Counted from the first letter of the stretch, positions 1 to 18,466 are shown. The stretch is DNA of 64,000 nucleotides from Minisyncoccia bacterium (GCA_041485695.1 JBGPJZ010000002.1:65499-129498); one strand, 5' to 3'. A program made the numbers and translations. The notes: a model not told the origin generated them from the letters alone.

Positions 1-389
1 ATGAGGATGATGCCGAACGCCACGTACCATGAAAGCGTCTCGCCGAGAAAGAGGTATGCGAGGGCGAAGGTGAACACGGTCTGGAGCTGAAAGAGGGGCG
101 CGACGACCGATGCCTCCTCCTTCTGTATGGCGCGCAGATAAAAGAGCATCGCGAGCATATAGAGCGCGCCAGCGATGGCCATGATGAATGCGCTCAGTGC
201 CGAGACGCCGAGGACCGCGGGGTCGAAATACCAGATGACGGGGAGCGTGAGGAGCCCGAGGAGCGCGGTGAAGATCATGAGGACGGCCGTGTCGCTCCGC
301 GCGAAGTATTTGCTTACCAGATACTTATCGATATGAAAGCCAATGCCCCAAAAGACGGGGCCGGAGAAGGCGAAAAGGAGCCAAAGCAT
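1..389 (-). CDS. DMT/EamA-family transporter, N-terminal part (gene continues past window start)
   Basis: Reverse translation from ATG at 389..387 reads MLWLLFAFSGPVFWGIGFHIDKYLVSKYF... and stays open to position 1 with repeated hydrophobic TM stretches. Truncated by the window edge, so absent from the ORF track. Confidence 0.45.
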   Translation of the reverse strand, partial: MLWLLFAFSGPVFWGIGFHIDKYLVSKYFARSDTAVLMIFTALLGLLTLPVIWYFDPAVLGVSALSAFIMAIAGALYMLAMLFYLRAIQKEEASVVAPLFQLQTVFTFALAYLFLGETLSWYVAFGIIL

Positions 390-448
390 ACGAGGTCGAA
401 GTATAACAAACCCCCGGCCCCTCTCGGGGCCGGGGTCTGCATCTTATC

Positions 449-2403
<1,955 letters not shown>

Positions 2404-2792
2404 AGGGATTTACAAGCTGCTAAGGTGCTCGCAATATAGAGAAACTAACGTTTCCCCGCAACTTGACAAGTGCAGTGATTAAGACGTAAAGTTGATATCA
2501 GGATTCCAACCGCAAAGGCAGAGCAACAATGGAAGCACTTTTCAGCACTCCGCTAGGTGGCGTCGCCTTGGGAGTTTTCTTTATCGGTGCCGCATACACT
2601 TTCGGAATGTTCCTCGAGATTCTTTGTCTAGTGCTTGATTTGACATCTCGTGTGGTGCAAAGCGCTATCGAAATCGGGAAGTACTATCTGGTTGATTGAT
2701 TCGATCGGGCGCGAGGGGGTCAAGGGACCCGCTCGCGCTATTTTTATACCCATTTGCGCCCAATTAGTTGACGTGATAACCTATCCATAAAG

Positions 2793-3032
2793 ATGGAGGC
2801 ACTCGTATCGGCACTGCCGTACGCAGAGATTGTCCTCGCCCTCCTCACCATCATCGGCGTCGTGCTTCAGCAGCGCGGTGCAAGTCTTGGCGGGGCGTTC
2901 GGCGGCGACAACTTCGCGTCAACCTTTTATAAGCGCCGCGGCGCAGAGAAATTTTTATTTAACGCGACTATCGTCGTCGCGACCCTTCTCGTCATCGCCG
3001 CGGGCGCAAACTTTCTTCTTATATCGTCATGA
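2793..3032 (+). CDS. secG: preprotein translocase subunit SecG
   Basis: 79 aa, two hydrophobic segments with a ...LQQRGASLGGAFGG... loop, typical of SecG. Confidence 0.65.
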   Translation: MEALVSALPYAEIVLALLTIIGVVLQQRGASLGGAFGGDNFASTFYKRRGAEKFLFNATIVVATLLVIAAGANFLLISS

Positions 3033-4756
3033 ACGAACGCATCGCGCGCTGGCGAGAAGCGCTCACGCGCCCCCGCGTCGTCGAAACTCTAGAGAGATTG
3101 CGCGCGTATGTCGAGGGTCTTTCGCGCGGCGACCGAGTTATCGCCTATGCGCTCGGCGCCCTCGTCGCCGTCGCCTCGGTTACGAGCCTTTATGCGCTTG
3201 AACAGCATCTCCTCGTGCGCGTCCCGACGTATGGCGGGACCTTGGTTGAAGGCGAGGTCGGGAGCCCTCGCTTCGTAAACCCGCTCCTCGCTATTTCAGA
3301 CGCCGATCGGGACCTTACGACGCTCACCTACGCCGGGCTTATGGGCATCGGGGGAGACGGCTCTCTTATCCCGGTCATAGCAAAAAGCTATAGCGCTTCT
3401 CCCGACGGCAAGGTGTACACGTTTGTGTTGCGCGATAATGCTGTCTTTAGCGACGGATCGCCTGTTACCGCAGACGATATCGTCTTTACCATCCAAAAGG
3501 CGCAAGATCCGGGGTTAAAGAGCCCGCAATTTGCAAACTGGAGCGGCGTTATAGCGGTAGCGACTGATGCCCACACCGTTACGTTCACCCTCGCGAAGCC
3601 CTATGCCCCGTTTCTTGAAAACACCACGCTCGGCATCTTACCTGCCCGCCTCTGGCGAAGCATCCCTGACGAGCAATTCCCCTTTTCAACGCTTACGCTT
3701 GAACCTGTTGGCGCCGGCCCTTTCAAAACATCGGGCGTCTCGCGCGACGCAAGCGGCCTTATCACGAGCTACTCGCTCTTAGCAAATGTTCGGCATCCCT
3801 TGGGCAGACCCTACCTCTCGGGCGTCAAGTTCATCTTCTTCTCTCGCGATGAAGACTTGGTGAAGGCTCTCCAAAACGGCAACGTGCAAAGCGCGTACGG
3901 GCACCCCTCCCTCTACGCACTGACAGCCCCTTACTCGCGAGTCTTCGGCGTCTTCTTTAATCAAAGCAACAATCCCGTATTCGCACGCCTTGAGGTGCGG
4001 GAGGCGCTTTCGCTCGCGGTTGATCGCGCAAAGATTACTGAAAAAATCCTCGGCGGCTACGCGACGCCAATCGTGGGGCCGGTACCGCCGGGGGCGAACA
4101 TTAAGGAGACGCCGGTGCCTGTTTTTACTGACCCGACGAGTAAAGCAGCCGAGATACTCGTAAACGCTGGCTGGCAGTATAACGGCGCAGCACGGGTGTG
4201 GAAGAATGCGAGCGCCAAACTCTCGCTCGATTCGATTACGGTCAAGACATCGAACGTGCCCGAGCTTAAGGCCGTCGCTGGAGCCGTGAAAACCGACTGG
4301 GAAAAGCTTGGCGTCGCGGTCGACATTGAGCTCTATGAGCCTGGTGACCTTAACCAAAACGTCATCCGTCCGCGTAAATATGAGGCGCTCCTTTTTGGGA
4401 TGGTCATCGGGCGGGATAAAGATCTCTACGCCTTCTGGGACTCACAAGAGCGTAACGACCCCGGGCTCAATATCGCTCTTTATGCCAATAAGACCGTCGA
4501 CACCCTTCTTGAAGAGGCACGCCAGGCGAGTGATCCGAGTACGCGCCTTGCTGACCTCCAAAAGATCGAGGACGCTATCGCTCTCGACTACCCGGCCGCG
4601 TTTACGCATGCACCAGACTTCGTCTACACGGTGCCGCAACAACTCGGCGGCGTTGCGCTCCCGCAGATTACGACCCCTTCAGATCGATTTGCGACGGTTG
4701 TCGATTGGTATCTTACGACTGAAGCGGTCTGGCCCTTTTTGAGTACGCAGAGGTAA
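3029..4756 (+). CDS. membrane-anchored extracellular solute-binding protein, family 5 (oligopeptide/nickel-type SBP)
   Basis: 575 aa. N-terminal TM anchor, then SBP_bac_5-like blocks (VYTFVLRDNAVFSDGSPVTADDIVFT...). Start overlaps the secG stop (ATGA). Confidence 0.5.
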   Translation: MNERIARWREALTRPRVVETLERLRAYVEGLSRGDRVIAYALGALVAVASVTSLYALEQHLLVRVPTYGGTLVEGEVGSPRFVNPLLAISDADRDLTTLTYAGLMGIGGDGSLIPVIAKSYSASPDGKVYTFVLRDNAVFSDGSPVTADDIVFTIQKAQDPGLKSPQFANWSGVIAVATDAHTVTFTLAKPYAPFLENTTLGILPARLWRSIPDEQFPFSTLTLEPVGAGPFKTSGVSRDASGLITSYSLLANVRHPLGRPYLSGVKFIFFSRDEDLVKALQNGNVQSAYGHPSLYALTAPYSRVFGVFFNQSNNPVFARLEVREALSLAVDRAKITEKILGGYATPIVGPVPPGANIKETPVPVFTDPTSKAAEILVNAGWQYNGAARVWKNASAKLSLDSITVKTSNVPELKAVAGAVKTDWEKLGVAVDIELYEPGDLNQNVIRPRKYEALLFGMVIGRDKDLYAFWDSQERNDPGLNIALYANKTVDTLLEEARQASDPSTRLADLQKIEDAIALDYPAAFTHAPDFVYTVPQQLGGVALPQITTPSDRFATVVDWYLTTEAVWPFLSTQR

Positions 4757-4775
4757 TTATTTAATTTTCACCACT

Positions 4776-6722
4776 ATGAACACACCATCACCACGACCAG
4801 CACCGCCTCCGGGCCAGGGTCCGCGACCGTTTACGCCTCATCCAGGAAGCGAGCGAGGACCACGGCCCTATGGCCCGGGAAGAGAGGGCGACCGCCGCCA
4901 GGGCGGTCGACCCTATGGCGGTCGAGGCGGCGGGGGCCGCGGCGGAGGGCGACCGGGCGGCGTACGTCGCCGCATCGAGCGTATGCTCCGTCGGCCTACC
5001 GCAGCCCCTAGAAAGCCTCAGAGCGCCGATTACTACCCAGAGCCAGCAACCGGTAACACGGTACGCATCGTCCCTTTAGGCGGCATTGAGGAGGTGGGCC
5101 GCAATATGACCGCCGTTGAGGCCAACGGCGATATCCTCGTCTTTGACGCGGGCTTCCAATTCGTTTCTGAAGACGGATCCCCGGGTGTCGACTACATCCT
5201 CCCCAACACCAAATATCTTGAAAAAAACCAAGACCGCGTGCGCGGCGTCATCATCACGCACGGCCACCTCGACCACATCGGCGGCATCCCGTTCGTGCTC
5301 CCACGCTTCGGCAATCCTCCAATATACACGCTGGCTCTGACCGCAGTGATGATCGCGAAGCGTCAGGAGGAGTATCCCGATATCCCAAAGCCTGAAATCA
5401 TCACGGTCGAAGTCGGCCAATCGATGACGATTGGCCATACCAAGGTCAAATTCTTTCCCGTTACGCACTCTATCCCCGACTCAATGGGCGTCTCCCTAGA
5501 GACTCCGCAAGGAAACGTCGTCATCACCGGCGACTTGAAGCTTGACCACGATGACGGTATCCCCTCAGAGAAAGAGAAGAGGGTGTGGGGCGAGATTGGT
5601 AAAGACAAGAATCTCTTTTTCATTGCGGACTCCACAAACGCAGAGAAAGACGGCTTCTCTATCCCTGAAAAGCGCGTGATTCAGACACTCGAGGACATTG
5701 TGCGCACCGTGAATGGTCGGCTCATTATCGGCACCTTCGCCTCACAATTTGAAAGGATGGTGAAGATCATCGAAATTGCAGAAAAACTCGGCAAGAAAAT
5801 CGTGACCGAAGGACGCTCTATCCGCACCAATCTCGAGATTGCCGAGAAAATGAACCTTTTGAAAATCGACAAAGGCACCATCATCCCCTCACAGGCGATT
5901 GGCGACTACCCTCCTGATAAAATCGTAATCCTCTCAACGGGTGCGCAGGGTGAAGAGTTTGCGGCCTTGATGCGCATCGCGACCAAGCAGCATAAGACCA
6001 TCTTCCTCAATGAACGCGACACCATCGTCCTCTCTTCATCCGTCATCCCGGGGAACGAGCTCAACGTGCAGAAGCTGAAAGACAATCTCTACCGCCAGGG
6101 AGTGACGCTTATCCACTACCGGTCAAGCGACGTGCACTCGACCGGCCACGGCAATACAGGCGAACTCGTATGGATCAACAAACAGGTTCATGCCAAGTAC
6201 TTCATGCCTGCCTATGGCTACCGCTCAATGACCTTCTGCCATGCAAAAGCCGTCGAGCAGAGCGGCTTCCCAAAGGAGAACATCATCTTGGCTGATAATG
6301 GCACCGTCATCGACATCGAAGACGGCGAGAAGCTGAACGTGCACAAGCAAAAAGTCCCTTCGACCCAGATGGTGGTCGATGGATTTTCGATTGGCGATAT
6401 GCAAGAGGTCGTGATACGCGACCGGCAGATGCTCGCCAAAGACGGTATGTTCGTGATTATCGCCTCGATCAATATCAAGACCGGAAAGCTCCGTAAGTCG
6501 CCTGACATCATCTCGCGCGGCTTCATTTACCTCCGCGAATCCCAAGACTTGCTTAACCAAGCACGGCTCCTCATCAAGAAAACCGTCGAGGACTCAACCC
6601 GCAACATGAACCCCATTGACCTTGACTACGTTAAAAACAACCTTGCTGACGTGATGACGGGCTTCCTCTTCACCCGTACGAACAAAGCCCCGATGGTCAT
6701 CCCTGTGCTTATCGGGATGTAA
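4776..6722 (+). CDS. rnj: ribonuclease J (MBL / beta-CASP / RNA-binding) with ~100-aa RGG-rich N-terminal extension
   Basis: IVPLGGIEEVGRNMTAVE...ITHGHLDHIGG... plus beta-CASP and C-terminal domains. The first ~100 aa are Pro/Gly/Arg low complexity (GGRPYGGRGGGGRGGGRPGG). Confidence 0.85.
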   Translation: MNTPSPRPAPPPGQGPRPFTPHPGSERGPRPYGPGREGDRRQGGRPYGGRGGGGRGGGRPGGVRRRIERMLRRPTAAPRKPQSADYYPEPATGNTVRIVPLGGIEEVGRNMTAVEANGDILVFDAGFQFVSEDGSPGVDYILPNTKYLEKNQDRVRGVIITHGHLDHIGGIPFVLPRFGNPPIYTLALTAVMIAKRQEEYPDIPKPEIITVEVGQSMTIGHTKVKFFPVTHSIPDSMGVSLETPQGNVVITGDLKLDHDDGIPSEKEKRVWGEIGKDKNLFFIADSTNAEKDGFSIPEKRVIQTLEDIVRTVNGRLIIGTFASQFERMVKIIEIAEKLGKKIVTEGRSIRTNLEIAEKMNLLKIDKGTIIPSQAIGDYPPDKIVILSTGAQGEEFAALMRIATKQHKTIFLNERDTIVLSSSVIPGNELNVQKLKDNLYRQGVTLIHYRSSDVHSTGHGNTGELVWINKQVHAKYFMPAYGYRSMTFCHAKAVEQSGFPKENIILADNGTVIDIEDGEKLNVHKQKVPSTQMVVDGFSIGDMQEVVIRDRQMLAKDGMFVIIASINIKTGKLRKSPDIISRGFIYLRESQDLLNQARLLIKKTVEDSTRNMNPIDLDYVKNNLADVMTGFLFTRTNKAPMVIPVLIGM

Positions 6723-6723
6723 G

Positions 6724-7644
6724 TTATCTTAAGGGTGTGCCGGAGGGTATCACGGGCATATCTTTGTACGAAGCAAATAAGTCCTCGAGGGAACGGACAG
6801 GTACTTCTGTATTCAGCGCCCGAGCCTTGGGCAGATTCCAGTACGGGACGCTGGTCCAGCGATGGTGTTCGAAGTGATACCAGGTATTGTGCGGAACAAA
6901 AACGAGTCGGTACAGGAACCGAGCATAAATGCGATGGACATCCGCCGTACCCATGTGTTCTGTCCAGATTCGTAGGCGAAAGACTGCCCAGAATGCCGAC
7001 CCCATAGCGGCAAACCAGATCAGTAAGATCCACCACATACTGAAGTGCCAGATGATAAAGAGCGCCACTACCCACCAGACAACCGGTACCAACTTATCTT
7101 TAATGGAGTCCCGCACTGCGATATAACTCAATACAAAAAACTCTTCTTCTACACCTCCAAAAAGAAACATATCCCCGAAGAAAAACCGTATGATGCGCGC
7201 TACTCTCGCAGGCAAGTCATAGTGCGGAGCGAGGTGTTTCTTGTGGTACAACTCTGGATCCTTTTCAGTTCCTAGATTTTCATGATGCGTAAAATGAAAC
7301 CGCCGATAACCGCTGATGCCGATGCCCATCGGCCAGAACACGAGCAATTCAGCAAGGAAATCATTGAGCCACAATTTACTGCTAATGTGCCCATGGGCCC
7401 CTTCATGCCCCAGAATGACAATGGAGTGTTGACGTGTGCCTGTTACGAATGTCGCGAGAATGGCAGTAATGATGAGAAAAATATCCCAGAGAGGAGCGTA
7501 ACCGCGGCTTTCCGTCAATTGAAAAACTTCATACACGGCTGCCATCGAAAGTCCGATGATTCCCCAGTCTATGAGAGCGGCAAGGAGCCACCGTGCGATG
7601 CTGGGGCGACTTATTGAGGCGGCTTCTGGCGCGGGAGGAGGCAT
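6724..7644 (-). CDS. membrane fatty-acid desaturase family protein (three His boxes)
   Basis: 306 aa with HEGAHG, HFTHH and HFEHH boxes and multiple TM segments. Codons are visibly AT-richer than neighbouring genes. Confidence 0.7.
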   Translation of the reverse strand: MPPPAPEAASISRPSIARWLLAALIDWGIIGLSMAAVYEVFQLTESRGYAPLWDIFLIITAILATFVTGTRQHSIVILGHEGAHGHISSKLWLNDFLAELLVFWPMGIGISGYRRFHFTHHENLGTEKDPELYHKKHLAPHYDLPARVARIIRFFFGDMFLFGGVEEEFFVLSYIAVRDSIKDKLVPVVWWVVALFIIWHFSMWWILLIWFAAMGSAFWAVFRLRIWTEHMGTADVHRIYARFLYRLVFVPHNTWYHFEHHRWTSVPYWNLPKARALNTEVPVRSLEDLFASYKDMPVIPSGTPLR

Positions 7645-7679
7645 GTTCTTGAAGCTTGGGTGATTTTATCATAGCAGCG

Positions 7680-8492
7680 TCAAGGGTGTACATCCATTGT
7701 CTCTTTGCGTTGTGCGACGATATTGCAGAACATGAAGATGTTATCTACGAAATGGGCTGGTTTGATTTTTATCCAGCCGCGAGGTAAGAGGCGGTAGAGT
7801 TCGTACTCGGGGAGTAGCTCTGACAAGCTGTGGAGCGTGTAGTTGCGGCGCAATTGGAGAATATTAAATTCAAATTGTATGAATCTCGGCTTGAATCGCT
7901 CGATTGTTTTGCGCGCACCTAACAGTACCTCGCGCTCATACCCTTCAGTATCTATCTTTATGAAATCAAGCTGTTTGAGTGAGAGCTCCTCGACGACATG
8001 ATCGACGGTAGTGACAGGGACCTCTTCTCCCCTAACTCCTATCGGCATCAAATTTTTATCGAGTGTGGCGGTAGCGGCTCGCTCTCCTCTTGAGAAGAGA
8101 GTCGCGGCGCCGTTAAAATCTGCTACCGCAGTTCGGAGCGCGACGACCCTCCCGGCATTCTCGGCCTCGACTTTCTGTAATTCTACAAACGAAGAGGTGG
8201 AGGGCTCAAAAGCATAAACGATGCAGTTTAAATGGCTGTGGAGCGCTTTCGTGTAATTGCCGACGTTCGCACCAATGTCTAAGCAGGTACGTATGCCTGC
8301 AGGTTTCAAGACAGACTTTATAAACCATTCTTCACCGGTAAACCTGGGCTGCTTGTACGCGTTATCGTACCCGAGCCCGTGGAGCGAAAGATTGATGAGC
8401 GCGTGATGAAACCCCTGCATAGACGGCCGGCCGCATACTCTCGCATAATAGTTCGCCGCTATCCACGCGTAGTGCTTCAGCCGCTTTTTCAT
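7680..8492 (-). CDS. FkbM-family SAM-dependent methyltransferase
   Basis: 270 aa. DIGANVGNYT ... AFEP ... IKIDTEGYE motifs of Methyltransf_21/FkbM. Start overlaps the mutY-like stop (ATGA). Confidence 0.75.
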   Translation of the reverse strand: MKKRLKHYAWIAANYYARVCGRPSMQGFHHALINLSLHGLGYDNAYKQPRFTGEEWFIKSVLKPAGIRTCLDIGANVGNYTKALHSHLNCIVYAFEPSTSSFVELQKVEAENAGRVVALRTAVADFNGAATLFSRGERAATATLDKNLMPIGVRGEEVPVTTVDHVVEELSLKQLDFIKIDTEGYEREVLLGARKTIERFKPRFIQFEFNILQLRRNYTLHSLSELLPEYELYRLLPRGWIKIKPAHFVDNIFMFCNIVAQRKETMDVHP

Positions 8493-9313
8493 GAGAGCAC
8501 ACTACCACGCGGTAACTGGAAACGGTTACCGCGTTTTTGTATGAGATGCTCGGAGAGAAGTGCGGAAAGGGCCGCGCGGAGCTGCGCGCGGCGAGAGAGG
8601 CCGAGGAGATTCGCAAGAGATGCGGACGTGCGCCCGCCCCCGACAAGCGCACGGAGGATCGCCCCACGCGCTTCGCGATTAGAACCAGCAAACTTCGATT
8701 GTTTGACGTAATGTTTGCTTTTTGTGTTTAGTTTTATGCCCGACTGCTTTAAGTACGCGCCGTAGTCCATCAAGGCCGAGTACCACTTCCTCGCCTCCCT
8801 TTTTGGGAGTACCTGCTCAAGGATTTTTGTAATCTGCACGTCGGAAATGTCCTTCGTATCGCCAAAAAAGTGGTGCAGAACTGCCGTCCGGATATTCGTT
8901 TCGATAAAAATGCAATCTTTGTTGAAGGCGAAAGCCACGACAGCGCGCGCTGTATAGGGACCCACGCCATCGAGCGCTTCCCATTGTTCGACGGTTCTCG
9001 GGAACGAGCCTCGATAATGCCCGACAATCTCTTGCACAGCGTGATGCAGGTTACGGGCTCTGCGATTGTAGCCGAGGCCTTGCCACACTTTGAGCACGCT
9101 TGAAAGAGGTGCTACTGCCAAACGTTCGACCGTGGAAAATTTCTCTAGAAATCGCCAATAAAACGGGATGACGCGTTCCACCTGTGTTTGCTGGAGCATT
9201 ACTTCAGATACTAAAATTCTGTATGGATCTTTAGTTTTACGCCACGGCAGATCATGCCGCCCGTGTTTTTTATAATGCACCCACACTATCTTTCTAAAAT
9301 CTGTATACAACAC
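8489..9313 (-). CDS. HhH-GPD DNA glycosylase, MutY catalytic domain fused to a C-terminal winged-helix; no [4Fe-4S] motif, no NUDIX domain
   Basis: 274 aa. LPWRKTKDPYRILVSEVMLQQTQVERV and ALMDYGA match the MutY N-domain, but there is only one Cys. The C-terminal ~70 aa are wHTH-like. GTG start with a GAGGTAGGA SD. Confidence 0.65.
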   Translation of the reverse strand: MLYTDFRKIVWVHYKKHGRHDLPWRKTKDPYRILVSEVMLQQTQVERVIPFYWRFLEKFSTVERLAVAPLSSVLKVWQGLGYNRRARNLHHAVQEIVGHYRGSFPRTVEQWEALDGVGPYTARAVVAFAFNKDCIFIETNIRTAVLHHFFGDTKDISDVQITKILEQVLPKREARKWYSALMDYGAYLKQSGIKLNTKSKHYVKQSKFAGSNREARGAILRALVGGGRTSASLANLLGLSRRAQLRAALSALLSEHLIQKRGNRFQLPRGSVLS

Positions 9314-9336
9314 GTCCGTATCCTACCTCTGCTGGT

Positions 9337-9370
9337 ATAAAAAGAAAAAGAGCACCACAAGTGGTGCTCG
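9337..9370 (-). terminator. intrinsic terminator (GAGCACCAC-AA-GTGGTGCUC + U-run) on minus strand
   Basis: Perfect 9-bp GC-rich stem followed by UUUUUCUUUUU on the minus strand, ~25 nt upstream of the mutY-like start. Confidence 0.6.
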
Positions 9371-9628
9371 AAGGAGGGAAAGTTGCTGGACTGCATAGAG
9401 CCACGCGATCTTCGACTGAACCGCCCCCAGGGGTGGTCGTCACCTCATGCCGGTATTCGCTTGCGTATTCTAGACTACGCGCACTTGTTCTTTGGCATCC
9501 TGGAGCACCGCTTTGCGCAAAGCGATACTCCATCGAGAGTCGTACATTCTCTCGGGACACTTCTAACCCTTTCCGGTTTCAGCATTGGCCATTGATACCC
9601 GCGCCCAGGGCAACTCCAGCAACTGACC
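9371..9628 (-). ncRNA. candidate structured small RNA (~290 nt) between nth and mutY-like; family unassigned
   Basis: Bounded by a minus-strand TTGACA-17-TAGTAT promoter (9663..9635) and the terminator at 9337..9370. The 5' CAGUUGCUGGA pairs with the 3' UCCAGCAACU, and there is an internal 16-nt perfect palindrome CGCUUUGCGCAAAGCG. No convincing ORF. Confidence 0.3.
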
Positions 9629-9634
9629 CGCCCC

Positions 9635-9663
9635 TATACTATGCCTCTCGACACGAATGTCAA
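9635..9663 (-). promoter_or_regulatory. sigma70-like promoter, -35 TTGACA / 17 bp / -10 TAGTAT (minus strand)
   Basis: On the minus strand TTGACA is at 9663..9658 and TAGTAT at 9640..9635. The -35 overlaps the nth stop codon. Confidence 0.45.
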
Positions 9664-10358
9664 CTCGCCCTTGGCCAGCGTTTGTTGGCGGGCGGCCAGA
9701 GCTTAGTAAGAGGATGTGCGGAGCAGTCATGTGGGCGCGCTGGGCAGAGATAGCGGCCATAGAGGACGAGGCCATTATTCACATACTTCCAATCTTTCTT
9801 TGGTATCAGTGACTCAAGGTCTTTTGAGATCCTTTTGAGATCGCTTTGATCAGTCAAATCAAAGCGCTTCGCGAATCTTTTTACGTGGGTATCCGTAGGT
9901 ATCCCCTCCCACGTGTCATAAAGCTCACCTAAGACGACGTGTGCTGTTTTGTAGCCCACGCCAGGGAGCGCGACCAGCTCTGCTTCGGTACGTGGCACTT
10001 CCCCACCGTACTTTTCTTCAATAATCTTCGCGGCCCCTATCACCGCCTTGGCTTTATTACGGAAAAATGGGATTGAAGAGATTTCTTTCGTGAACACGGT
10101 AAGATTTGCCCGAGTAAAGTCTTTCGGTGTCTTGTATCGCTTAAAAAGCGAGTTCGTAAGTTTATTCACTGCTTTGTCAGTGCACTGCGCTGAAAAAACA
10201 ACTGCTGCAACAAACTGGAACGGCGTTTCATGCCTGAGCTCGCTCTTCGGGACGGGGTACGCACGTTTTAAATAGGAGAGAATCTTCTTAGCTCTTGCCC
10301 GGCGCTCTTTAGCTTTTGAGGGAGTCACTAGCACAGCATAAAGGAATGGCGGGCTCAT
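9660..10358 (-). CDS. nth: endonuclease III-like HhH-GPD glycosylase (degenerate Fe-S loop)
   Basis: 232 aa. ...FSAQCTDKAVNK...LVALPGVGYKTAHVVL...IPTDTHVKR.. is a typical Nth core. The C-terminal Cys cluster is reduced to C-x6-C only. Confidence 0.7.
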   Translation of the reverse strand: MSPPFLYAVLVTPSKAKERRARAKKILSYLKRAYPVPKSELRHETPFQFVAAVVFSAQCTDKAVNKLTNSLFKRYKTPKDFTRANLTVFTKEISSIPFFRNKAKAVIGAAKIIEEKYGGEVPRTEAELVALPGVGYKTAHVVLGELYDTWEGIPTDTHVKRFAKRFDLTDQSDLKRISKDLESLIPKKDWKYVNNGLVLYGRYLCPARPHDCSAHPLTKLWPPANKRWPRAS

Positions 10359-10657
10359 TCAAGAGCCCGCCTCTTCTTTCGCTTGACTCGCTTCGTAAGC
10401 GTCTCGCTAATCTCCTGCCGTACATAGACGCGAGCCCCTATCTGAATCTGAACATTGATGGCGTCGGCGACATTACTTACTAGTTCACGAATTTCCTTTC
10501 GCGCCCGACACCCATTCAACTGTCCGTTTTTTGCGCAACGGCGCCACGCGCCCAGTAGCTTTTTCTTATCTCTGCGAGTATACACATCCGCTGCCGCAAA
10601 AAGAGCACCGAGCGGGCGCGTGAGCCGCGTCCACGGTATATCAAACCGCTTGTCCAT
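10355..10657 (-). CDS. small basic hypothetical protein (~100 aa)
   Basis: ATG (MDKRFDIPW...) preceded by GGGGGAG. Stop overlaps the nth start (ATGA), suggesting translational coupling. Confidence 0.4.
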   Translation of the reverse strand: MDKRFDIPWTRLTRPLGALFAAADVYTRRDKKKLLGAWRRCAKNGQLNGCRARKEIRELVSNVADAINVQIQIGARVYVRQEISETLTKRVKRKKRRALE

Positions 10658-10687
10658 TTTCTCCCCCAAAAGAACCCTTCTATCGGA

Positions 10688-11845
10688 TTATACTGCAGTG
10701 CCTTCAGATTCGCGAGGGAAGGCAAAACGGTATACAAGGTGTGTCAGTACGCCGAGCATGTAGACGATGGCGAGCGCAGTAACGAATCCGCCGATATAGG
10801 GCAAGGACCACACGAGAAAGAGTACGAGCATCCCGAAAACGGCATCGCTCCATCGAAGCTCGGTGCGCTTAAAGAGGTCGTGCGCAAGGTACGAACCGAT
10901 GACAATCGCCGCGTAAATAAAAGCGAGCGGAATAAGGAGCAGGTACGCGAGGCCAAGGATGAGAGCGAGGCCGAGACCGACGAAAGTGACTGCGAGGATG
11001 AGCAGCAATACAGGTGTCGCTACGAGGACGCCGAAACCGAGTAGGAGGGTGAGGAGCGCGCGACGCACTGATACGTGAGTTGCCCTAGTGACTACGCGGT
11101 CGACAAACGTGGGAAAAATTCCTGCAAGGAGCCCTGCGAGAATAAGCGCGCCAAGAATCTTTACGAAAAGAAAGACGCCAAAGGAAGCGAGAGCGATGGC
11201 GCGCGCCTCTTTAGAGGTGGGAAGATACGACGCTCCTGTGTAATGGACGCCTCCGGCAATAGTCGCCGAACTGGGGATGTTCGCTTGTTCGGGCGCCTGA
11301 TAGCGGAGCTCACCGCGAATCACCGCCCCTGGGAGGAGCGTAACGCGGCTGCCGGCAATCACCTCGACGTCACTGAGGAATGTGCCTCCGAGCGATATGG
11401 TGTTGCCATAGACGGTGACGGGGCCGGCGGCGCCCTTAGTCATGCTTACGTCTCCTGCAGCAATAAGCACGTTCGCTCCCCCGCCACCCGAGTCGACAAC
11501 CGAGCCGCCGAAAGCAACAAGATCGCCACCGACGGCTCCAGAAAGCGTGATGCTCCCGCCCATAAGCCGGGCATCGCCAGCAACGGGAGCGTTAATGTGA
11601 AGCGAACCGCCCGCAAGCGACAGGTCGCCGCCAACAGCAGCCTCAACGGAGAGCGACCCACCGGCTGCCGTGAAATCGCCCTTGATTGGCGTAGTGACAG
11701 CAACCGTGCCGCCAATAGCGTAGACATTGGCTGGGGTCGTTGTCGCGATTAAGATGCTGCTCCCGCTCACGAAAGCGGGAGCAGCTGCTGCTGCCGCACT
11801 CCCCGGGAGCGTAACGAGAGCGAGCGTAAGGAGAAGCCGGGTCAT
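10688..11845 (-). CDS. signal-peptide protein with beta-helical GG(S/D)L repeat region (bactofilin/DUF4097-like) and C-terminal polytopic membrane domain
   Basis: Start taken at MTRLLLTLALVTLPGSAAAAA (ATGA overlap with the VKOR stop at 11843..11845). ~17-aa repeats (AGGSLSVEAAVGGDLSL...), then 4-5 TM helices. No cysteines. Confidence 0.5.
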   Translation of the reverse strand: MTRLLLTLALVTLPGSAAAAAAPAFVSGSSILIATTTPANVYAIGGTVAVTTPIKGDFTAAGGSLSVEAAVGGDLSLAGGSLHINAPVAGDARLMGGSITLSGAVGGDLVAFGGSVVDSGGGGANVLIAAGDVSMTKGAAGPVTVYGNTISLGGTFLSDVEVIAGSRVTLLPGAVIRGELRYQAPEQANIPSSATIAGGVHYTGASYLPTSKEARAIALASFGVFLFVKILGALILAGLLAGIFPTFVDRVVTRATHVSVRRALLTLLLGFGVLVATPVLLLILAVTFVGLGLALILGLAYLLLIPLAFIYAAIVIGSYLAHDLFKRTELRWSDAVFGMLVLFLVWSLPYIGGFVTALAIVYMLGVLTHLVYRFAFPRESEGTAV

Positions 11846-12369
11846 GTCTGGGGTGGCGGTAAGACGAGAGTCGAGCGGAAGCGTGGTGGAGGCATCTCGA
11901 TAACGGTCATGCGGGGAGCAAGCGGCTCGATGAAATAAGCAAGAATGAAGACCAAGAGCGAAATGAGCGCCGAGAGCGAACAATAAATACACAGCGCGTT
12001 AATGACGGAAAGCTGGATAAATATGAAGTAGGCCGAGGCAATAAGGCCGAGAGCAACGAGTCCTTGTATCACGCGTCGAACATGCACTTGCACATACATC
12101 ACTTCAACCGCCGCGAGAATGAACAGGAGCGTGTAAAAAGCGACACCGTAGTCGGCGAGAGGGATCCCGAGGATATGCGAATAGGGGCTCTCGGCTACGA
12201 CGTTACAGCCGGAGAGCCCAGCGATATCGCAAATGAGGGGAATGCCCGAGAAGGCCTCTTTAGCGAGGTACACGGAGTCTGAAAGGCCGAAAAAGGCAAG
12301 GAGGAGTATGAGCCAGACCGCGAGCCGTTTCATACTGGGCATCGTACGCTCCCGAGTGATATTCTTCAA
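11842..12369 (-). CDS. vitamin K epoxide reductase (VKOR)-family membrane oxidoreductase
   Basis: Loop Cys pair CDIAGLSGC and an intramembrane CIYC (CxxC), typical of bacterial VKOR/DsbB-like proteins. True start may be an internal Met (MKRLAVW...). Confidence 0.6.
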   Translation of the reverse strand: MKNITRERTMPSMKRLAVWLILLLAFFGLSDSVYLAKEAFSGIPLICDIAGLSGCNVVAESPYSHILGIPLADYGVAFYTLLFILAAVEVMYVQVHVRRVIQGLVALGLIASAYFIFIQLSVINALCIYCSLSALISLLVFILAYFIEPLAPRMTVIEMPPPRFRSTLVLPPPQT

Positions 12370-12371
12370 GC

Positions 12372-12734
12372 ATGAAGGAGCTCACTCCCGAAGAACGCCG
12401 TGTCATGCTTGAGGGCGGCACCGAAGCGCCCTTTACCGGAGAATATGTTGACAACCACGAGCCGGGCGTCTACCGCTGTAAGCAGTGCGGCAACGTCCTC
12501 TTCACCTCCGCACAAAAGTTCGACTCCGGCACCGGCTGGCCCTCGTTTACCGACCCCGCGGTCGCCGAAAACGTCGGCACGCGCCTCGATGCAGACAGAA
12601 GCCGCACTGAAGTCTACTGCAAGAACTGCGGCGGCCATTTAGGCCACGTATTTAACGACGGCCCTGCAGACAAAAGCGGCAAGCGCTACTGCATCAACTC
12701 CGTCTGCCTCGATTTTGAAGCAGAGAAAAAGTAA
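12372..12734 (+). CDS. msrB: peptide-methionine (R)-S-oxide reductase MsrB
   Basis: 120 aa with CKQCG ... GWPSF ... RTEVYCKNCGGHLGHVF ... RYCINS. Canonical SelR/MsrB with the Zn-binding CxxC pairs. Confidence 0.9.
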   Translation: MKELTPEERRVMLEGGTEAPFTGEYVDNHEPGVYRCKQCGNVLFTSAQKFDSGTGWPSFTDPAVAENVGTRLDADRSRTEVYCKNCGGHLGHVFNDGPADKSGKRYCINSVCLDFEAEKK

Positions 12735-12771
12735 TAAGGTAGCACTATAACACTGCCCCCTCTTACTTGTT

Positions 12772-13338
12772 TTAATCGTTTGATTTGTGGTTCGACGTCG
12801 AGGACGCGGTGGTCGTACCAACTTTATTATCGTTTGATAACCCCTTGCCGCAACGGCGCTCGAAGAATCCGCGGGTGAGCGGCCCCACGGTGCCTGTCGT
12901 GGTCGAAGCGATGCTGTTCTTTAATTGGAAACGCTTCAGCGCCTCTGCCGTCAAGGAGCCGAAATAGCCGGTCGATGACGCAGTAAAATTACGATCATCG
13001 TCTTCTTTCAGCATCTCTTGCAGCTTCCTCACATCGTCCCCGCGCGAGCCGATGCCGAGGTCGCGATAAAGGGCGATGCAAACCATCTTTCCAACTTGGC
13101 CGGGAGCGGTCGAGGGCTTCTTGTCTTCGTTCTCGCCTGAACGTGGCGGCGCCTGTCCGTTCAGTACCGCGCGCACCGTGTCAACGGTTTTCGTATCTAC
13201 ATTGAATGACTGTAGCAAGGTAAGGACCGAATTAATCTGGTTCGTAGTGAGCCCTGCCGCTTGCACGGGAGAGGCGGTCGTAAAGAGGGCGAGGGCGAAG
13301 GCTGCACTCGTGAGGGTGACTTTGATTGATGGGCGCAT
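12772..13338 (-). CDS. secreted protein with peptidoglycan-binding (PG_binding_1-like) domain
   Basis: Signal peptide MRPSIKVTLTSAAFALALFTTASPVQA, then ...GSRGDDVRKLQEML...YFGSLTAEALKRFQ..., characteristic of a PG-binding domain. Confidence 0.5.
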   Translation of the reverse strand: MRPSIKVTLTSAAFALALFTTASPVQAAGLTTNQINSVLTLLQSFNVDTKTVDTVRAVLNGQAPPRSGENEDKKPSTAPGQVGKMVCIALYRDLGIGSRGDDVRKLQEMLKEDDDRNFTASSTGYFGSLTAEALKRFQLKNSIASTTTGTVGPLTRGFFERRCGKGLSNDNKVGTTTASSTSNHKSND

Positions 13339-13488
13339 AATTCGATAATGTAAAGTCGTATAAATAGCGCGGAACGACCCGCTCCCCCTAGCGTATCACG
13401 AATCGGACCCCCACGTGCGACCATCCTACCACTACGACAAGTTCTTATAGACAGGAGTTGCTGACGACTTATCAATTACTTCATCAGT

Positions 13489-13662
13489 ATGAAGATATTC
13501 GGCGCTCTGGGATTCGGCGTATTCCTGATGGTGCTTGCAGCACTCATGCCCCCGGTACTTGCGGAGCTCACGAACACCCTTGTGGTCGTCTTGCAAAGTT
13601 CGGCCAAGGCATTCGTCGCGGCGGGCATCATCGCGGCATACGCAGGACACATCCCTCACTGA
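13489..13662 (+). CDS. possible 57-aa hydrophobic small protein (below ORF-track cutoff)
   Basis: MKIFGALGFGVFLMVLAALMPPVLAELTNTLVVVLQSSAKAFVAAGIIAAYAGHIPH, followed by an AAGGCCGGAC-AGTA-GTCCGGCCTT hairpin. No SD. Confidence 0.2.
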   Translation: MKIFGALGFGVFLMVLAALMPPVLAELTNTLVVVLQSSAKAFVAAGIIAAYAGHIPH

Positions 13663-13690
13663 CCCAAGGCCGGACAGTAGTCCGGCCTTG

Positions 13691-15256
13691 TTATGCTGCA
13701 AGCGGCATCGTGAACCAAAAGGTGCTCCCCTTCCCCTCTCCTTCGCTCACAATGCCGATACGGCCGCCCTGCCGGTCAACGATATTCTTTGAAAGCGAGA
13801 GCCCCAGACCCACTCCCTCGGTGTCAGCTGTGCGGGCCGCATTCGTACGATAAAAACTCGAAAAGATATTTTCTTGATCCTCGCGATTAACACCAATGCC
13901 GGTGTCGGTCACTGCAAAACGTACACCGTGCCGATCCGGCGCCACGGTGATGTGGACCTTCCCTCCCGCAGGCGTATACATGACGGCGTTTTCTACGAGC
14001 ACCTCAGCGACAAGAGCAAGCCGGCGCGCATCCCCGAGAGCTAAGGGGGGATTCTCAGCGTCTACCGATACGGCAAGTTTTTTCTCCGCAATTTGAGTTG
14101 CGAAGCGCTTCACGGCCTCCCAGGCAAGATGCCGCAAATCGACAGGAATCTGCTGGTAATCGTAGGTCCCGCCCGGATGCGCTGCTTCCATAAGGACATT
14201 GGTGAGCTCGATGAGTTGGTTATTGGCGTCATCAATGCGCCGTATCCCCTCACGAAGGTCGTGGTTAGTACCCGCTTGCGCAAGGAGTTCCGGGATGACC
14301 CAGCGAATGCGCGTAAGAGGGGTCCGCAACTTGTGTGTGGCAACCGTGATGAACTCGTATTTCAGCTTTTCAGACTCTCGCGCCTGCTTAAGGACCGACC
14401 GGCCGATAATGAATGCGACGATGGCAACGATGACCGGTACTGTCCAAAACTGGAAGCCCGGTATTGTGCGCTCCAAAAATCCGTTGAAGAGGATGAGAGC
14501 GACCAGGAACGCGGCGATTGCCGCGATGCTAAAGGCATAATAGAACGCGCGTCGAACGACGAGCCGGATATCAAGGAGATCGGTCGCGAAGACGCCGTAC
14601 GCGACCGGAATCAAATAGAAACCGACGAATGAGCCGAACACGGGGTCAAAGGGAATGTTGAACACCAAGAGAAAATTGAGGCAACCGATTGAGTAGCCGA
14701 CCGCGATCATCAAAATGAAATATTCGAGTCGCTGGCGTTCAATCCCGGCTGAAAGTCGGTAGGCGTTGACCAGATTCGCGACCGCGACGAACAAGGCACC
14801 GAAGAAATAGACGAGCATGACGATATACCACCACCCGGCGGTGAGATAAAAGGGGAAGTAGAGCTTCGGCACGACGTCAGGGAGAAACCACGTGGGGTGA
14901 AACCAGGGGACGATGAAGACGACGGCGCCGATAAGGTAGGTAGCGATAATAAACCAGCGCCATTCCCGATCTCTCTTGATGACACGAAAGATAAAATGTA
15001 CGACGGCCATCGGGATGATGGTGTCGAAGATATTCAAGAACCACCAAAAATAGGCAGCATCGTGTGCGGTCTGCAAGGAGGCAATGATGAAAAAGACCGT
15101 GTAGAGGAGAGTGGTAACGGTGATGAAGAAAAAGAGCCAGTTGATGTCGCGCCGCGGATTCTGAAATAAGACGAAGAGCCCGCCAATGAAGATGATTGCC
15201 CCCGAAACGGCGTTAGCACCGACCGTAATCCAAAGTTCGTTTGCAAACCCGGCCAT
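13691..15256 (-). CDS. sensor histidine kinase with N-terminal multi-TM sensor domain
   Basis: 521 aa. ~8 TM helices, H-box HKLRTPLTRIRW, HATPase_c motifs (...DTGIGV...GLGLS...). Confidence 0.8.
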   Translation of the reverse strand: MAGFANELWITVGANAVSGAIIFIGGLFVLFQNPRRDINWLFFFITVTTLLYTVFFIIASLQTAHDAAYFWWFLNIFDTIIPMAVVHFIFRVIKRDREWRWFIIATYLIGAVVFIVPWFHPTWFLPDVVPKLYFPFYLTAGWWYIVMLVYFFGALFVAVANLVNAYRLSAGIERQRLEYFILMIAVGYSIGCLNFLLVFNIPFDPVFGSFVGFYLIPVAYGVFATDLLDIRLVVRRAFYYAFSIAAIAAFLVALILFNGFLERTIPGFQFWTVPVIVAIVAFIIGRSVLKQARESEKLKYEFITVATHKLRTPLTRIRWVIPELLAQAGTNHDLREGIRRIDDANNQLIELTNVLMEAAHPGGTYDYQQIPVDLRHLAWEAVKRFATQIAEKKLAVSVDAENPPLALGDARRLALVAEVLVENAVMYTPAGGKVHITVAPDRHGVRFAVTDTGIGVNREDQENIFSSFYRTNAARTADTEGVGLGLSLSKNIVDRQGGRIGIVSEGEGKGSTFWFTMPLAA

Positions 15257-15258
15257 GG

Positions 15259-15654
15259 CTATCCGAGCTGTTTCTTGATTGCTTCGACGATTGCCGAGGG
15301 CAGCGTCATTGCCTTAACGAAAAAGCCGGCTGCGCCAAGAGCAACTGTCTCGCGCTGATCAGCTTCAGCGGAGAGATTCGAGAGGACGAACACAGGGATT
15401 TCTTTTGTAGCCGAATCGCTCTTAAGGCGCTTCAAGACCTCTTTGCCATCAATCTTGGGAAGAACGAGATCGAGGAGAATGAGATCAGGCTTCTCTTTGC
15501 CGACCAGGGCAAGTCCTGTTTCACCGTCACTTGCGACCGCCGTCGTGTATCCAGCTTCAGTTAAAAGACGGCTCATCGTGCCTGCGAAAAACGGCTCATC
15601 CTCGATATATACGATTCGAATACGTTCACCGCTTATGTTTTGGGGGGCATCCAT
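15259..15654 (-). CDS. single-domain response regulator (CheY-like receiver)
   Basis: IRIVYIEDEP...DLILLDLVLPKIDG...K... receiver motifs. Start chosen at MDAPQ... (tatATG context) rather than the longer ORF-track start. Directly upstream of the histidine kinase. Confidence 0.75.
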   Translation of the reverse strand: MDAPQNISGERIRIVYIEDEPFFAGTMSRLLTEAGYTTAVASDGETGLALVGKEKPDLILLDLVLPKIDGKEVLKRLKSDSATKEIPVFVLSNLSAEADQRETVALGAAGFFVKAMTLPSAIVEAIKKQLG

Positions 15655-15743
15655 ATACGAATAGTATAACCCACTCCTTAAAAAAGGGGAGCCTGCAGTT
15701 GCGTTATGGGTGTTCATTGTGGTAGAGTCGCTTTACTAACGCT

Positions 15744-16316
15744 TTGAGTACCGAACGACTACTACTAAACAACGAGATCCGTGCGCGTGAACTGCGCGTT
15801 ATCGGCGCCCAAGGTGAGAACCTCGGGGTCCTCTCCATTGAGGATGCCTTGGCGGCCGCCAAGGCGGCAGGTCTTGACCTTATCGAGATTTCGCCCTTGG
15901 CCGTGCCGCCGGTTGCTAAGATTACCGATTATGGTAAATTTGAGTACGAGCGAAGTAAGAAAGAGAAGGCCGTAAAGGCCAAAGCCGTTGTATCGGAGAC
16001 CAAGGAGGTCCAGATCAAGGTCGGTACTGGGGAGCACGATGTGATGCTCAAAGCCAAAAAGACAGCCGAATGGCTTGCCGAGGGGCACCGTGTGCGCGCA
16101 GAGCTTTTCCTTAAAGGGCGATACAAGGGGATGGAGGAAGCCTTTCTTAGAGAACGGCTTGAGAAGTTCCTCCTCCGTATCCCCTACGCGTACCGCATCG
16201 CCGAACCGATCGAACGGAGCCCGAAGGGCTTCGCCGGGGTCATCGAACGCGATAAGGAAGCGCAAGCGAAGCGCGAGAAGGAGCAGAAGCTCCACACAAA
16301 AAATGAAAACCAATAA
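15744..16316 (+). CDS. infC: translation initiation factor IF-3
   Basis: NNEIRARELRVIGAQGENLGVLSIEDAL...LDLIEISPLAVPPVAKITDYGKFEYE... is a canonical IF3. C-terminal Lys/Glu-rich tail. Confidence 0.85.
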   Translation: MSTERLLLNNEIRARELRVIGAQGENLGVLSIEDALAAAKAAGLDLIEISPLAVPPVAKITDYGKFEYERSKKEKAVKAKAVVSETKEVQIKVGTGEHDVMLKAKKTAEWLAEGHRVRAELFLKGRYKGMEEAFLRERLEKFLLRIPYAYRIAEPIERSPKGFAGVIERDKEAQAKREKEQKLHTKNENQ

Positions 16317-16488
16317 ATCATATTTAAAACGAGTTCGCGTCACCCGAAACGGCAAGATTATTGCGCGTGTGAAGGGGCAGAATCATTTCAATGCGAAAGC
16401 ATCTGGCAATAAGCGCCGCGGCAAGCGCGCGGACGTTACGCTTGTCTTTACCGCGCGCGCGCGCCGACGCTTTCTCCCAGGCTCATAA
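16303..16488 (+). CDS. rpmI: 50S ribosomal protein L35
   Basis: MKTNKSYLKRVRVTRNGKIIARVKGQNHFNAKASGNKRR..., starting inside the end of infC in another frame. Confidence 0.8.
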   Translation: MKTNKSYLKRVRVTRNGKIIARVKGQNHFNAKASGNKRRGKRADVTLVFTARARRRFLPGS

Positions 16489-16523
16489 TTCAAGTTCTTA
16501 CTTAACTGCGTAATCACTAACGT

Positions 16524-16871
16524 ATGGCACGAGTAAAAGGTGGAGTCATGGCGCAGAAGCGCCGTAAGAATATCCTCGCGCGAGCGAAGGGCTATCGCCA
16601 TGGGCGCTCGAAGAAGGAGCGCTATGCGCACGAGGCACTCCTCCATGCTGGTAAGTATGCGTTTGCGCACCGCAAAGACAAAAAGAATGACTTTCGCTCG
16701 CTCTGGATTGTCCGCCTCAATGCCGCAGTACGTGATAATGGCCACGCCTCCTACAGCCAATTTATCGGGAAGCTGAAGAAAGGCGGTATGCAGCTCGACC
16801 GCAAAGTCCTCGCCCAGTTCGCCGCCGACCACCCCGAGGTCTTCGCCCGCATCGCTAAGAAAGTTTCGTAA
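16524..16871 (+). CDS. rplT: 50S ribosomal protein L20
   Basis: MARVKGGVMAQKRRKNILARAKGYRHGRSK...LWIVRLNAAVR... Confidence 0.9.
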   Translation: MARVKGGVMAQKRRKNILARAKGYRHGRSKKERYAHEALLHAGKYAFAHRKDKKNDFRSLWIVRLNAAVRDNGHASYSQFIGKLKKGGMQLDRKVLAQFAADHPEVFARIAKKVS

Positions 16872-18243
16872 CTTTCTCTTTTGTAATCTCCCAGGTTTGG
16901 CCGAGCTCGGGGGCGATGGCGCGAGCACCGAGATAGTCGTGGATACGCTGGGCGAGGAAGTGTGAGGCCGCTGGCTCACCGAGCGCAGTGAAAATCGCCT
17001 TAGGTCTTTTATTAACAAGCGCCGCCTTGGCAAATTTAAGGAGCTCATCTCTATCGGCATGCGCCGACCATCCCTCAAGTAGCTCTATTTTTGCTCTAAT
17101 GTGAACCTCTTGGCCATTGAGACGCACTGAAGACGCTCCTTCCTGTATTTGCCGGCCCGGAGAGCCAGGAGCTTGGTACCCGACCATAAAAAGGGTCGTT
17201 TTGGGGTCGGGTAGGTACTTAATCTCGTGCTTACCGATGCGACCTCCGTGGCTCATCCCCGCCCCTGCGATGATTATTTTTGGGTTAGGAGCCGCATCTA
17301 TCTTCTCCGATTCGGTGTTGTGGGGTGTTTGGGTAAGAAACGGGAATTTGAACAAACTTTTTTCTCGCTTCATCTCCTCTTCTGCTGCTGGTTTGAAATA
17401 GGTGCTCCCCCACTTCTCGTACACCCGGGTCACGTCAATCGCAAGCGGTGAATCAAGAAAGACAGGGATTTTGGGCAAATCGCCCGTAGCAAAAAAGTTT
17501 GAGAGCTCGTAGAGCATGAGTTGCGTACGCTCCATAGCAAAGGCAGGGATGAGGATAGCGCCACCCCGTTTAATCGCAAGTTGAAGTCTCCCTTTGAGCA
17601 GCAAATCCCGTGTTGCTCGCGGAGGATGGACTCGGTCACCGTACACACTCTCCATAACGAGAGCATCGGCGTCCGGCACCGGCTCCCAGTCAGGCAATAA
17701 GGGCGAGGGCGAGTTGCCTATATCGCCCGTAAGTACGAGCGTGGTACCATCGCCAGCCGTAATACGTACGCTTGCCGAGCCTAAGATATGGCCCGTGTTG
17801 CGCAGATAGATTGAAAGCTCCGGAGCGACCTCCTTCTCTTCATGGTAGCTAAGCGTTTTGACGAGAGCGAAGGTAGCGTCGACATCGCTGGCTTCATACA
17901 ATACTGGTAAATTACGCCGATGCGCCTCTTTAGCAAGAATGTCGATACTATCGCGCAAAATAAGTTCGGCTAGGTCCCGGGTAGGCGGCGTCATATAGAT
18001 GTCGCCGCGAAAGCCGTCTCTCACTAACTTTGGTATGCGGCCCACATGATCGAGATGCGAATGAGTCACCACGAGCGCCTGTATCTCTTTCGGGTCATAA
18101 GGGAAATCACCGTATACGCATGACTCGCAAAAGTCAGCCCCTTGCTCGATACCACAATCGACTAAGATCTTCTGGCCGTCTTCTTCAATTAAAAAATTCG
18201 AACCGGTCACCTTCCCTGCTCCACCATAAAACGTCAGTCGCAT
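16855..18243 (-). CDS. MBL-fold beta-CASP family RNA-metabolising hydrolase
   Basis: 462 aa. ...VVTHSHLDHVGRIP..., ...HILGSASV..., ...GWSAHADRDEL... are the MBL His/Asp motifs plus a beta-CASP C-terminal half. Confidence 0.7.
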   Translation of the reverse strand: MRLTFYGGAGKVTGSNFLIEEDGQKILVDCGIEQGADFCESCVYGDFPYDPKEIQALVVTHSHLDHVGRIPKLVRDGFRGDIYMTPPTRDLAELILRDSIDILAKEAHRRNLPVLYEASDVDATFALVKTLSYHEEKEVAPELSIYLRNTGHILGSASVRITAGDGTTLVLTGDIGNSPSPLLPDWEPVPDADALVMESVYGDRVHPPRATRDLLLKGRLQLAIKRGGAILIPAFAMERTQLMLYELSNFFATGDLPKIPVFLDSPLAIDVTRVYEKWGSTYFKPAAEEEMKREKSLFKFPFLTQTPHNTESEKIDAAPNPKIIIAGAGMSHGGRIGKHEIKYLPDPKTTLFMVGYQAPGSPGRQIQEGASSVRLNGQEVHIRAKIELLEGWSAHADRDELLKFAKAALVNKRPKAIFTALGEPAASHFLAQRIHDYLGARAIAPELGQTWEITKEKVTKLS

Positions 18244-18466
18244 TGGGAGACTCTACCACGAGAAAATCCGCCAAGAGGGCGGATGTTCTCGTGGAGCCAC
18301 TATAAGAGTGCAACTTAATTATGCCAGGCGGGTGTCCGCATCGCGTCTATCGGAACTCCGTGAGGAACTCGACCAAAACGCGTGAATCTAAGACTCCCAA
18401 AGGAGAGGCAAGTTGCGTTTTTAAAGAGTGGCTCCACTAAAAAGTATACACCCCCTGTCAAGCGCT

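Follow-up and report, generated by a model that had tools for sequence, protein, structure and literature searches.

The stretch of DNA analysed here, a window of 64,000 nucleotides, is from the genome of an uncultivated Candidatus Kaiserbacteria bacterium (Parcubacteria/Patescibacteria, CPR), and all of the 80 best nth-containing loci among GTDB species representatives belong to Kaiserbacteria, Paceibacterota or Patescibacteria MAGs. The locus of interest is a spacer between two genes of the HhH-GPD type, nth and a mutY-like gene, within the following series on the minus strand:

11992-10688, minus strand: gene for a DUF8173-like membrane protein
10669-10355, minus strand: open reading frame (ORF) of 104 codons and unknown function, between the DUF8173-like gene and nth
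10358-9660, minus strand: nth, with HhH-GPD and HHH domains (TIGR01083, 204 bits)
between nth and the mutY-like gene, minus strand: spacer of 346 nt, non-coding
9313-8489, minus strand: gene for a mutY-like HhH-GPD glycosylase (TIGR01084, 204 bits, below the cut-off of the model and with only the N-terminal catalytic domain covered)
8492-7680, minus strand: gene for an FkbM-type methyltransferase
7644-6724, minus strand: gene for a fatty-acid desaturase

The stop codon of the mutY-like gene overlaps the start of the FkbM gene (8489-8492), and beyond the desaturase gene lies RNase J, in convergent orientation. At 10348-10371, exactly on the nth start codon and at the place where nth overlaps the 104-codon ORF, there is a GC-rich hairpin of 9 bp, GGCGGGCTC-6 nt-GAGCCCGCC, which scores as terminator-like on both strands. 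By a rough ORF-based gene call of the window, other intergenic gaps of more than 300 nt are found at 2440-3028, 11993-12371, 19529-19833, 23685-24004, 25717-26098, 36941-37251 and 61755-62251.

The sequence-only reading had described a candidate small RNA (sRNA) in the nth/mutY-like spacer, bounded by a promoter and a terminator. The features that it claimed are indeed present on the minus strand, with four small corrections:

9658..9663, minus strand: -35 hexamer TTGACA, containing the nth stop codon TGA (9662-9660)
9636..9641, minus strand: -10 hexamer TAGTAT, 16 nt from the -35 hexamer
9340..9630, minus strand: predicted transcript of ~290 nt, from the positions of the promoter and the terminator
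9339..9369, minus strand: intrinsic terminator, with the stem-loop at 9369-9350 and the U-tract UUUUUCUUUUU at 9349-9339
9311..9330, minus strand: Shine-Dalgarno (SD) region AGAGGUAGGA of the mutY-like gene at 9330-9321 and its GTG start codon at 9313-9311

Both promoter hexamers and their overlap with the nth stop codon were confirmed, with a spacer of 16 nt instead of the 17 nt given earlier. This promoter matches at 10/12 positions, a score reached by only three sites in 20 kb; the same 20 kb show no general excess of promoter-like sites (14 found against 11.7 expected), so that by itself the promoter is weak evidence. From the two signals together we infer that the segment is transcribed; the transcript would start 5-9 nt after the -10 hexamer, in the G run at 9631-9627, and would end within the U-tract. 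The two arms of the terminator, GAGCACCAC and GTGGTGCTC (9369-9350), are perfect complements along 9 nt and are followed by the tail TTTTTCTTTTT (9349-9339), as previously described, but only 2 nt separate the arms, and the real hairpin thus has 8 bp and a 4-nt loop in place of the 9 bp claimed. It is the most canonical terminator in positions 1-20000 of the window. The SD region of the mutY-like gene begins ~10 nt past the end of the U-tract (9339), and no second promoter matching at least 9/12 was found between the terminator and this SD region.

Predicted fold of the RNA

The 301-nt transcript is predicted to fold with a dG of -123.9 kcal/mol (z -4.0), and 0/100 dinucleotide shuffles were as stable. 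Among 213 minus-strand tiles of 300 nt, the candidate RNA has the most extreme fold z, a comparison that gives a rank only because the 12 shuffles per tile make the scan noisy and because the tiles were aligned to the boundaries of the RNA itself. Without the terminator the RNA has ~260 nt, and the sense strand (-105.7 kcal/mol, z -2.9) has an advantage in stability of 18.5 kcal/mol over the antisense strand (-87.2 kcal/mol, z -1.7). Such a difference fits structure at the RNA level, since G:U pairs contribute on one strand only, and the more stable strand is the one bearing the promoter and the terminator. As predictions from a single sequence, z values of about -3 to -4 are suggestive only. 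MFE and centroid structures agree on the predicted topology, a long 5'/3' closing helix round a multibranched core of five hairpins, with the following elements:

9610..9634, minus strand: 5' strand of the closing helix, GGGGCGGGUCAGUUGCUGGAGUUGC, with a perfect 10-bp core at 9624-9615
9371..9394, minus strand: 3' strand of the closing helix, GCAGUCCAGCAACUUUCCCUCC, with its perfect core at 9390-9381
9534..9554, minus strand: hairpin CGAGAG-9 nt loop-CUCUCG
9501..9532, minus strand: 14-bp hairpin holding a perfect 16-nt palindrome, CGCUUUGCGCAAAGCG (9524-9509)
9463..9480, minus strand: hairpin GCGUA-8 nt loop-UACGC
9414..9441, minus strand: hairpin GACGACC.CCC-CUGG-GGG.GGUU..GUC, whose 3' half is copy 2 of a 13-nt repeat
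9622..9634 and 9427-9415, minus strand: copies 1 and 2 of the 13-nt direct repeat GGGGCGGKUCAGU

Two structural features noticed earlier were recovered. The RNA ends can pair through AGUUGCUGGA (9624-9615) and UCCAGCAACU (9390-9381), which form 10 perfect bp, and flanking G:C blocks extend the closing helix to ~21 bp with bulges. The perfect 16-nt palindrome, CGCTTTGCGCAAAGCG at 9524-9509, occupies the tip of the 14-bp hairpin 9532-9501. Copy 1 of the 13-nt repeat belongs to the 5' strand of the closing helix, copy 2 to the 3' arm of the hairpin at 9414..9441; no further match was found in the 64 kb with one mismatch allowed (expected 0.13), or in 86 fetched loci. The repeat may have arisen by internal duplication, may offer the CU-rich 3' tail another sequence to pair with, or may serve as a binding site.

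No Rfam 15 family reached its gathering score anywhere in the 64-kb window. In a permissive Rfam search with 601 nt and with the exact 299 nt, the sole match at E<1 was chrB-a, with 17.8 bits against a cut-off of 43.9, and ARAGORN predicted neither tRNA nor tmRNA in the window or in 18 relative loci.

The nth/mutY-like junction in relatives

The comparison covered 83 relative loci; among the material retrieved were 80 GTDB loci round nth relatives and the two closest proteins in a database of 5.8 billion proteins. The exact Nth protein occurs once in a collection of 15 billion proteins, and its next-closest relative is 84% identical. Across the 83 related Kaiserbacteria loci, nth mostly runs directly up to the mutY-like gene or into it, as in L001, L003, L009, L012, L047, L053 and L082, where the overlap is an ATGA. 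Judged by this gene order, the whole 346 nt is an insertion specific to the lineage of the window, with a predicted -10 element and a terminator of its own.

Searches by nhmmer (also with --max), by blastn with word size 7 and with R2, a single-sequence covariance model of the window RNA (261 positions, 84 pairs), revealed no homologue of the RNA in 84 sources amounting to 690 kb; nor did one precede the mutY-like gene in any of the 47 relative loci that allowed this gene to be placed. A 19-mer from a junction region gave three matches of 19-21 nt in JGI metagenomes, all of them chance, and neither viral-contig scans nor distant blastn against phages and plasmids returned a homologue. The RNA is present in one copy in the 64 kb.

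No counterpart of the FkbM-type methyltransferase and desaturase genes (6724-8492, minus strand) was found in the 83 relative loci, in most of which RNase J comes soon after the mutY-like gene; the two genes are probably a lineage-specific acquisition. Taken with the inserted spacer, this suggests that in the lineage of the window sequence was added on either side of the mutY-like gene.

The junction is a hot spot of insertion, whose contents vary by lineage:

L005, L008, L018, L021, L031, L058, L063: gene for a HAD-family hydrolase
L022, L025: RelE-type toxin-antitoxin pair
L081: pilin-like gene
L002, L004, L018, L024, L031, L046, L048, L068 and others: Y-shaped element of ~100 nt, here called R1

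No remnant of the HAD hydrolase or toxin-antitoxin proteins was detected by tblastn in the spacer of the window.

R1, a Y-shaped element (three-way junction) of ~100 nt, recurs in Kaiserbacteria loci in multiple copies and on both strands, often immediately before the mutY-like gene or close behind nth, and also elsewhere. Copies were located at:

L002: 3563-3665
L031: 5386-5489
L048: 5889-5990
L024: 4672-4775 and 5621-5771
L004: 3905-4011
L046: 5841-5938 and, on the minus strand, 142-241
L068: 5328-5430
L035: 498-596
L060: 4689-4786, minus strand
L023: 5982-6083
L051: 3861-3957
L018: 5384-5514

Conserved within R1 are the UGCU loop of hairpin 1 and a GCCGUCGC motif in hairpin 2, while the long closing stem varies. 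The element covaries strongly, with 92.8% of cells paired against 38-51% in slid controls, double changes in 38/40 pairs and 0/500 shuffles reaching the observed values, counts that come from an alignment fitted to the R1 model's own structure with 23 rows, some of them weak matches or reverse-strand matches of the same sites. RNAalifold on five sequences, which found compensatory changes in 29/40 predicted pairs, gives independent support. The L002 and L004 copies had no Rfam match at E<=1, and R1 has the look of a dispersed structured element of the REP/MITE kind, or of an RNA family not yet described. The window RNA was rejected as a variant of R1, whose covariance model has no match in the window at E<=1. 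Both share the nth/mutY junction, a long closing helix, inverted-repeat ends and a patchy distribution among lineages; R1, however, is multi-copy, found on both strands and covarying, whereas the element of the window is single-copy, three times larger and has its own promoter and terminator.

Analogous cassettes after nth

In three of the relative loci, a promoter, a closed structured RNA and a terminator follow directly after nth, the same design as in the window:

L076, 3405-3650: RNA of ~170 nt with a 15-bp closing helix, z -4.67; terminator 3620-3646
L036, 4669-4905: rod-shaped RNA of ~135 nt, z -4.04; terminator 4871-4898
L038, 4686-4970: closed RNA of ~190 nt, z -3.69; terminator 4939-4962

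Their promoters, too, are built on or beside the nth stop codon. In L076, TTGACA overlaps the TGA stop and is followed by a TATACT -10 hexamer after a short spacer of 15 nt, which lies outside the range accepted by the promoter scan; TTGATT-16-TATGAT overlaps the stop codon in L036, and TTGACA-17-TAGAGT straddles it in L038. None of the three cassettes has an Rfam match. No sequence similarity was detected among the four cassettes, R2 matches none of the other three, and the predicted topologies of the four RNAs differ. The three were accordingly discarded as homologues of the window RNA and are better regarded as analogues.

The gene that follows the L036 cassette is a convergent RNase J, so that the L036 RNA cannot be a leader; at least this cassette, if the predicted elements are taken at face value, must be a free-standing RNA gene. 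The likeness of design among the four may be coincidence. That they belong to one very fast-evolving class of nth-linked structured RNAs in Kaiserbacteria, diverged beyond detectable sequence similarity, seems improbable to us. Were they one class, they would mark a CPR-specific 'slot' for functional RNAs, perhaps tied to DNA repair, or else to the accessory cassettes that also land at the nth/mutY junction.

Readings of the spacer

The spacer looks like a real small-RNA gene or a leader. Three readings had been offered from the sequence, and while the 6S-like one fails for want of an Rfam match and of the right topology, both a novel sRNA and a structured leader survive. Our preference, held tentatively and with somewhat less than even confidence, is for a stand-alone, fast-evolving sRNA gene. 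The promoter, the terminator, the closing helix, the z of -4.0, the strand bias, the lack of a coding signal and the insertion status speak for it; against it stands the position of the terminator ~10 nt before the mutY-like SD, which is the classic layout of a cis-acting leader and not that of a free-standing sRNA gene.

According to this sRNA model, a sigma-70-type promoter, made in part of the last nth codons, would start transcription near 9630, the RNA would fold into the long 5'/3' closing helix round the five-hairpin core, and a strong, apparently constitutive intrinsic terminator would release it near 9342. The product would be a stand-alone small RNA that acts as a free molecule, either in trans or by binding a protein. 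As a side effect, the cassette would insulate the mutY-like, FkbM and desaturase genes from the nth operon, so that these genes would be expressed only by read-through of the terminator. An own promoter, a terminator and a non-coding transcript are also what sRNA genes with sigma-70 promoters and Rho-independent terminators have, such as that of 6S RNA (RF00013). With 6S the window RNA also has in common the paired 5'/3' ends and a very stable fold; it differs from 6S in being multibranched, in its length of ~290 nt against ~150-200 nt, in having no Rfam match and in having no orthologues found at nth loci, even those of relatives with 81-84% identical Nth.

It is possible, but on balance unlikely, that the RNA is a cis-acting 5' leader or attenuator of an operon of the mutY-like, FkbM and desaturase genes, driven from the promoter at the nth stop codon. 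Its structured domain would then sense a ligand, a protein or a condition, and the terminator before the SD would decide on transcription. The layout favours this reading, since the terminator ends at 9339, the SD region (9330-9321) and start codon (9313) follow at once and no room is left for another promoter; moreover, the downstream ORFs are intact and must be expressed somehow. Attenuating leaders such as riboswitches, T-boxes and protein-dependent attenuators likewise have a promoter, a P1-closed domain, a terminator and then the SD and start codon, and the closing helix of the window RNA stands immediately ahead of the terminator, the place that P1 takes relative to the expression platform in a riboswitch. 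Over 24 nt, moreover, the 3' arm of the inner hairpin is 71% complementary to the terminator's 5' arm (duplex -19.7 kcal/mol). However, this pairing is the best competitor helix, and a fold forced to contain it lies 28 kcal/mol above the MFE; blocking the 3' arm of the terminator leaves the 5' arm unpaired, and the mutY-like SD is not sequestered but mostly accessible in the extended transcript. Neither a mutually exclusive antiterminator nor an anti-SD fold of comparable energy was predicted, which sets the window apart from attenuating leaders, as does the lack of a match to any riboswitch, T-box or other leader family or known aptamer in Rfam. No obvious ligand suggests itself from the downstream genes, which encode an HhH-GPD glycosylase, an FkbM methyltransferase and a desaturase, and the mutY-like genes of relatives are without such a leader, no conserved aptamer with covariation being found upstream of them. 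As no switch was found, the terminator looks constitutive, and it is this, together with the L036 analogue that cannot be a leader, that leads us to prefer a stand-alone sRNA over a regulated leader.

It is rather unlikely that the spacer is inserted DNA of a neutral or selfish kind, whether a decayed fragment or a MITE- or REP-like element bounded by terminal inverted repeats. On such an account the promoter- and terminator-like signals would be incidental and the apparent structure would merely reflect inverted repeats. It is consistent with the hot spot of insertion at the nth/mutY junction, with the absence of the segment from all relative loci examined and with the resemblance of the closing helix to imperfect terminal inverted repeats of 18-25 nt. 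A mobile element is less easily reconciled with the single copy in 64 kb, with the lack of matches in 86 loci, the metagenome scan, phages and plasmids, or in the dispersed R1 element, and with the flanks, in which no target-site duplication was seen by reading the sequence. Plain DNA inverted repeats, moreover, do not predict a sense strand that is clearly more stable than the antisense strand, and the strong promoter (one of three at 10/12, with the strongest -35 hexamer) and the best terminator in 20 kb stand in the correct order and orientation.

Far less likely still is a highly divergent housekeeping RNA (6S, RNase P RNA, SRP RNA or tmRNA) missed by current models in CPR. CPR lineages are poorly represented among the sequences behind known RNA families, which leaves some room for such an RNA, and the strong promoter, the paired 5'/3' ends and the high stability would suit one. 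6S is a rod of ~150-200 nt, with a closing stem, a large central bubble and a terminal stem, which binds RNA polymerase holoenzyme and templates pRNA; RNase P RNA has conserved CR-I and CR-V regions that form P4, and tmRNA combines a tRNA-like domain with a tag reading frame. The suggestion that the window RNA might be 6S-like is not borne out, with no covariance-model match to RF00013 at the gathering score or at E<=10, and with a multibranched fold ~100 nt too long in place of a rod with a central bubble. The earlier impression by eye that RNase P RNA, tmRNA and SRP RNA do not match holds. RNase P RNA (RF00010/RF00011) gave no Rfam match, and its CR-I (GGAAAGUCC) and CR-V motifs were not seen by reading the sequence; for SRP RNA (RF00169/RF01854) there was likewise no Rfam match and no sign of the domain IV motifs by reading; tmRNA (RF00023) was found neither by ARAGORN in the window nor by Rfam, and the Rfam result for all these families extends to E<=10. 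Nothing similar was present in ~8 kb round nth in relatives at 71-84% Nth identity, and this absence speaks against a housekeeping RNA, which is normally detectable at that distance.

That the spacer encodes a small protein is barely credible: a GTG ORF of 88 codons does run uninterrupted from 9560 to 9294, at variance with the earlier claim that there is no ORF, but it starts inside the RNA and reads through the terminator hairpin into the start of the mutY-like gene, its GC by codon position (0.60/0.57/0.38) is unlike the ~0.55/0.41/0.55 of real genes of the genome, it has no Pfam match and its exact sequence is absent from the collection of 15 billion proteins. Given the non-coding GC pattern and the lack of a Pfam family, there is no credible ORF, and in substance that claim stands.

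CPR/Patescibacteria genomes are tiny and streamlined. To our knowledge, almost nothing is known of their regulatory RNAs, and a literature search for ncRNAs in Patescibacteria gave nothing relevant among its top matches. If real, a strongly expressed, structured RNA of ~290 nt that originated in one lineage, or was acquired by it, would be an example of lineage-specific RNA innovation in streamlined genomes, and the inserted cassette would have rewired a repair-gene operon by cutting the mutY-like gene and two acquired genes off nth. It would also be one more lineage-specific bacterial sRNA or leader, opening no long-standing question. As it stands, the RNA is a single unconserved candidate, of practical value as a target for metatranscriptome checks.

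A minor observation concerns the RNase J of the window, which carries at 4776-4960 (plus strand) an N-terminal extension of ~65 residues that is Gly/Arg/Pro-rich and of low complexity. The tblastn matches of RNase J to relatives begin at residue 67, indicating that the extension varies between lineages.
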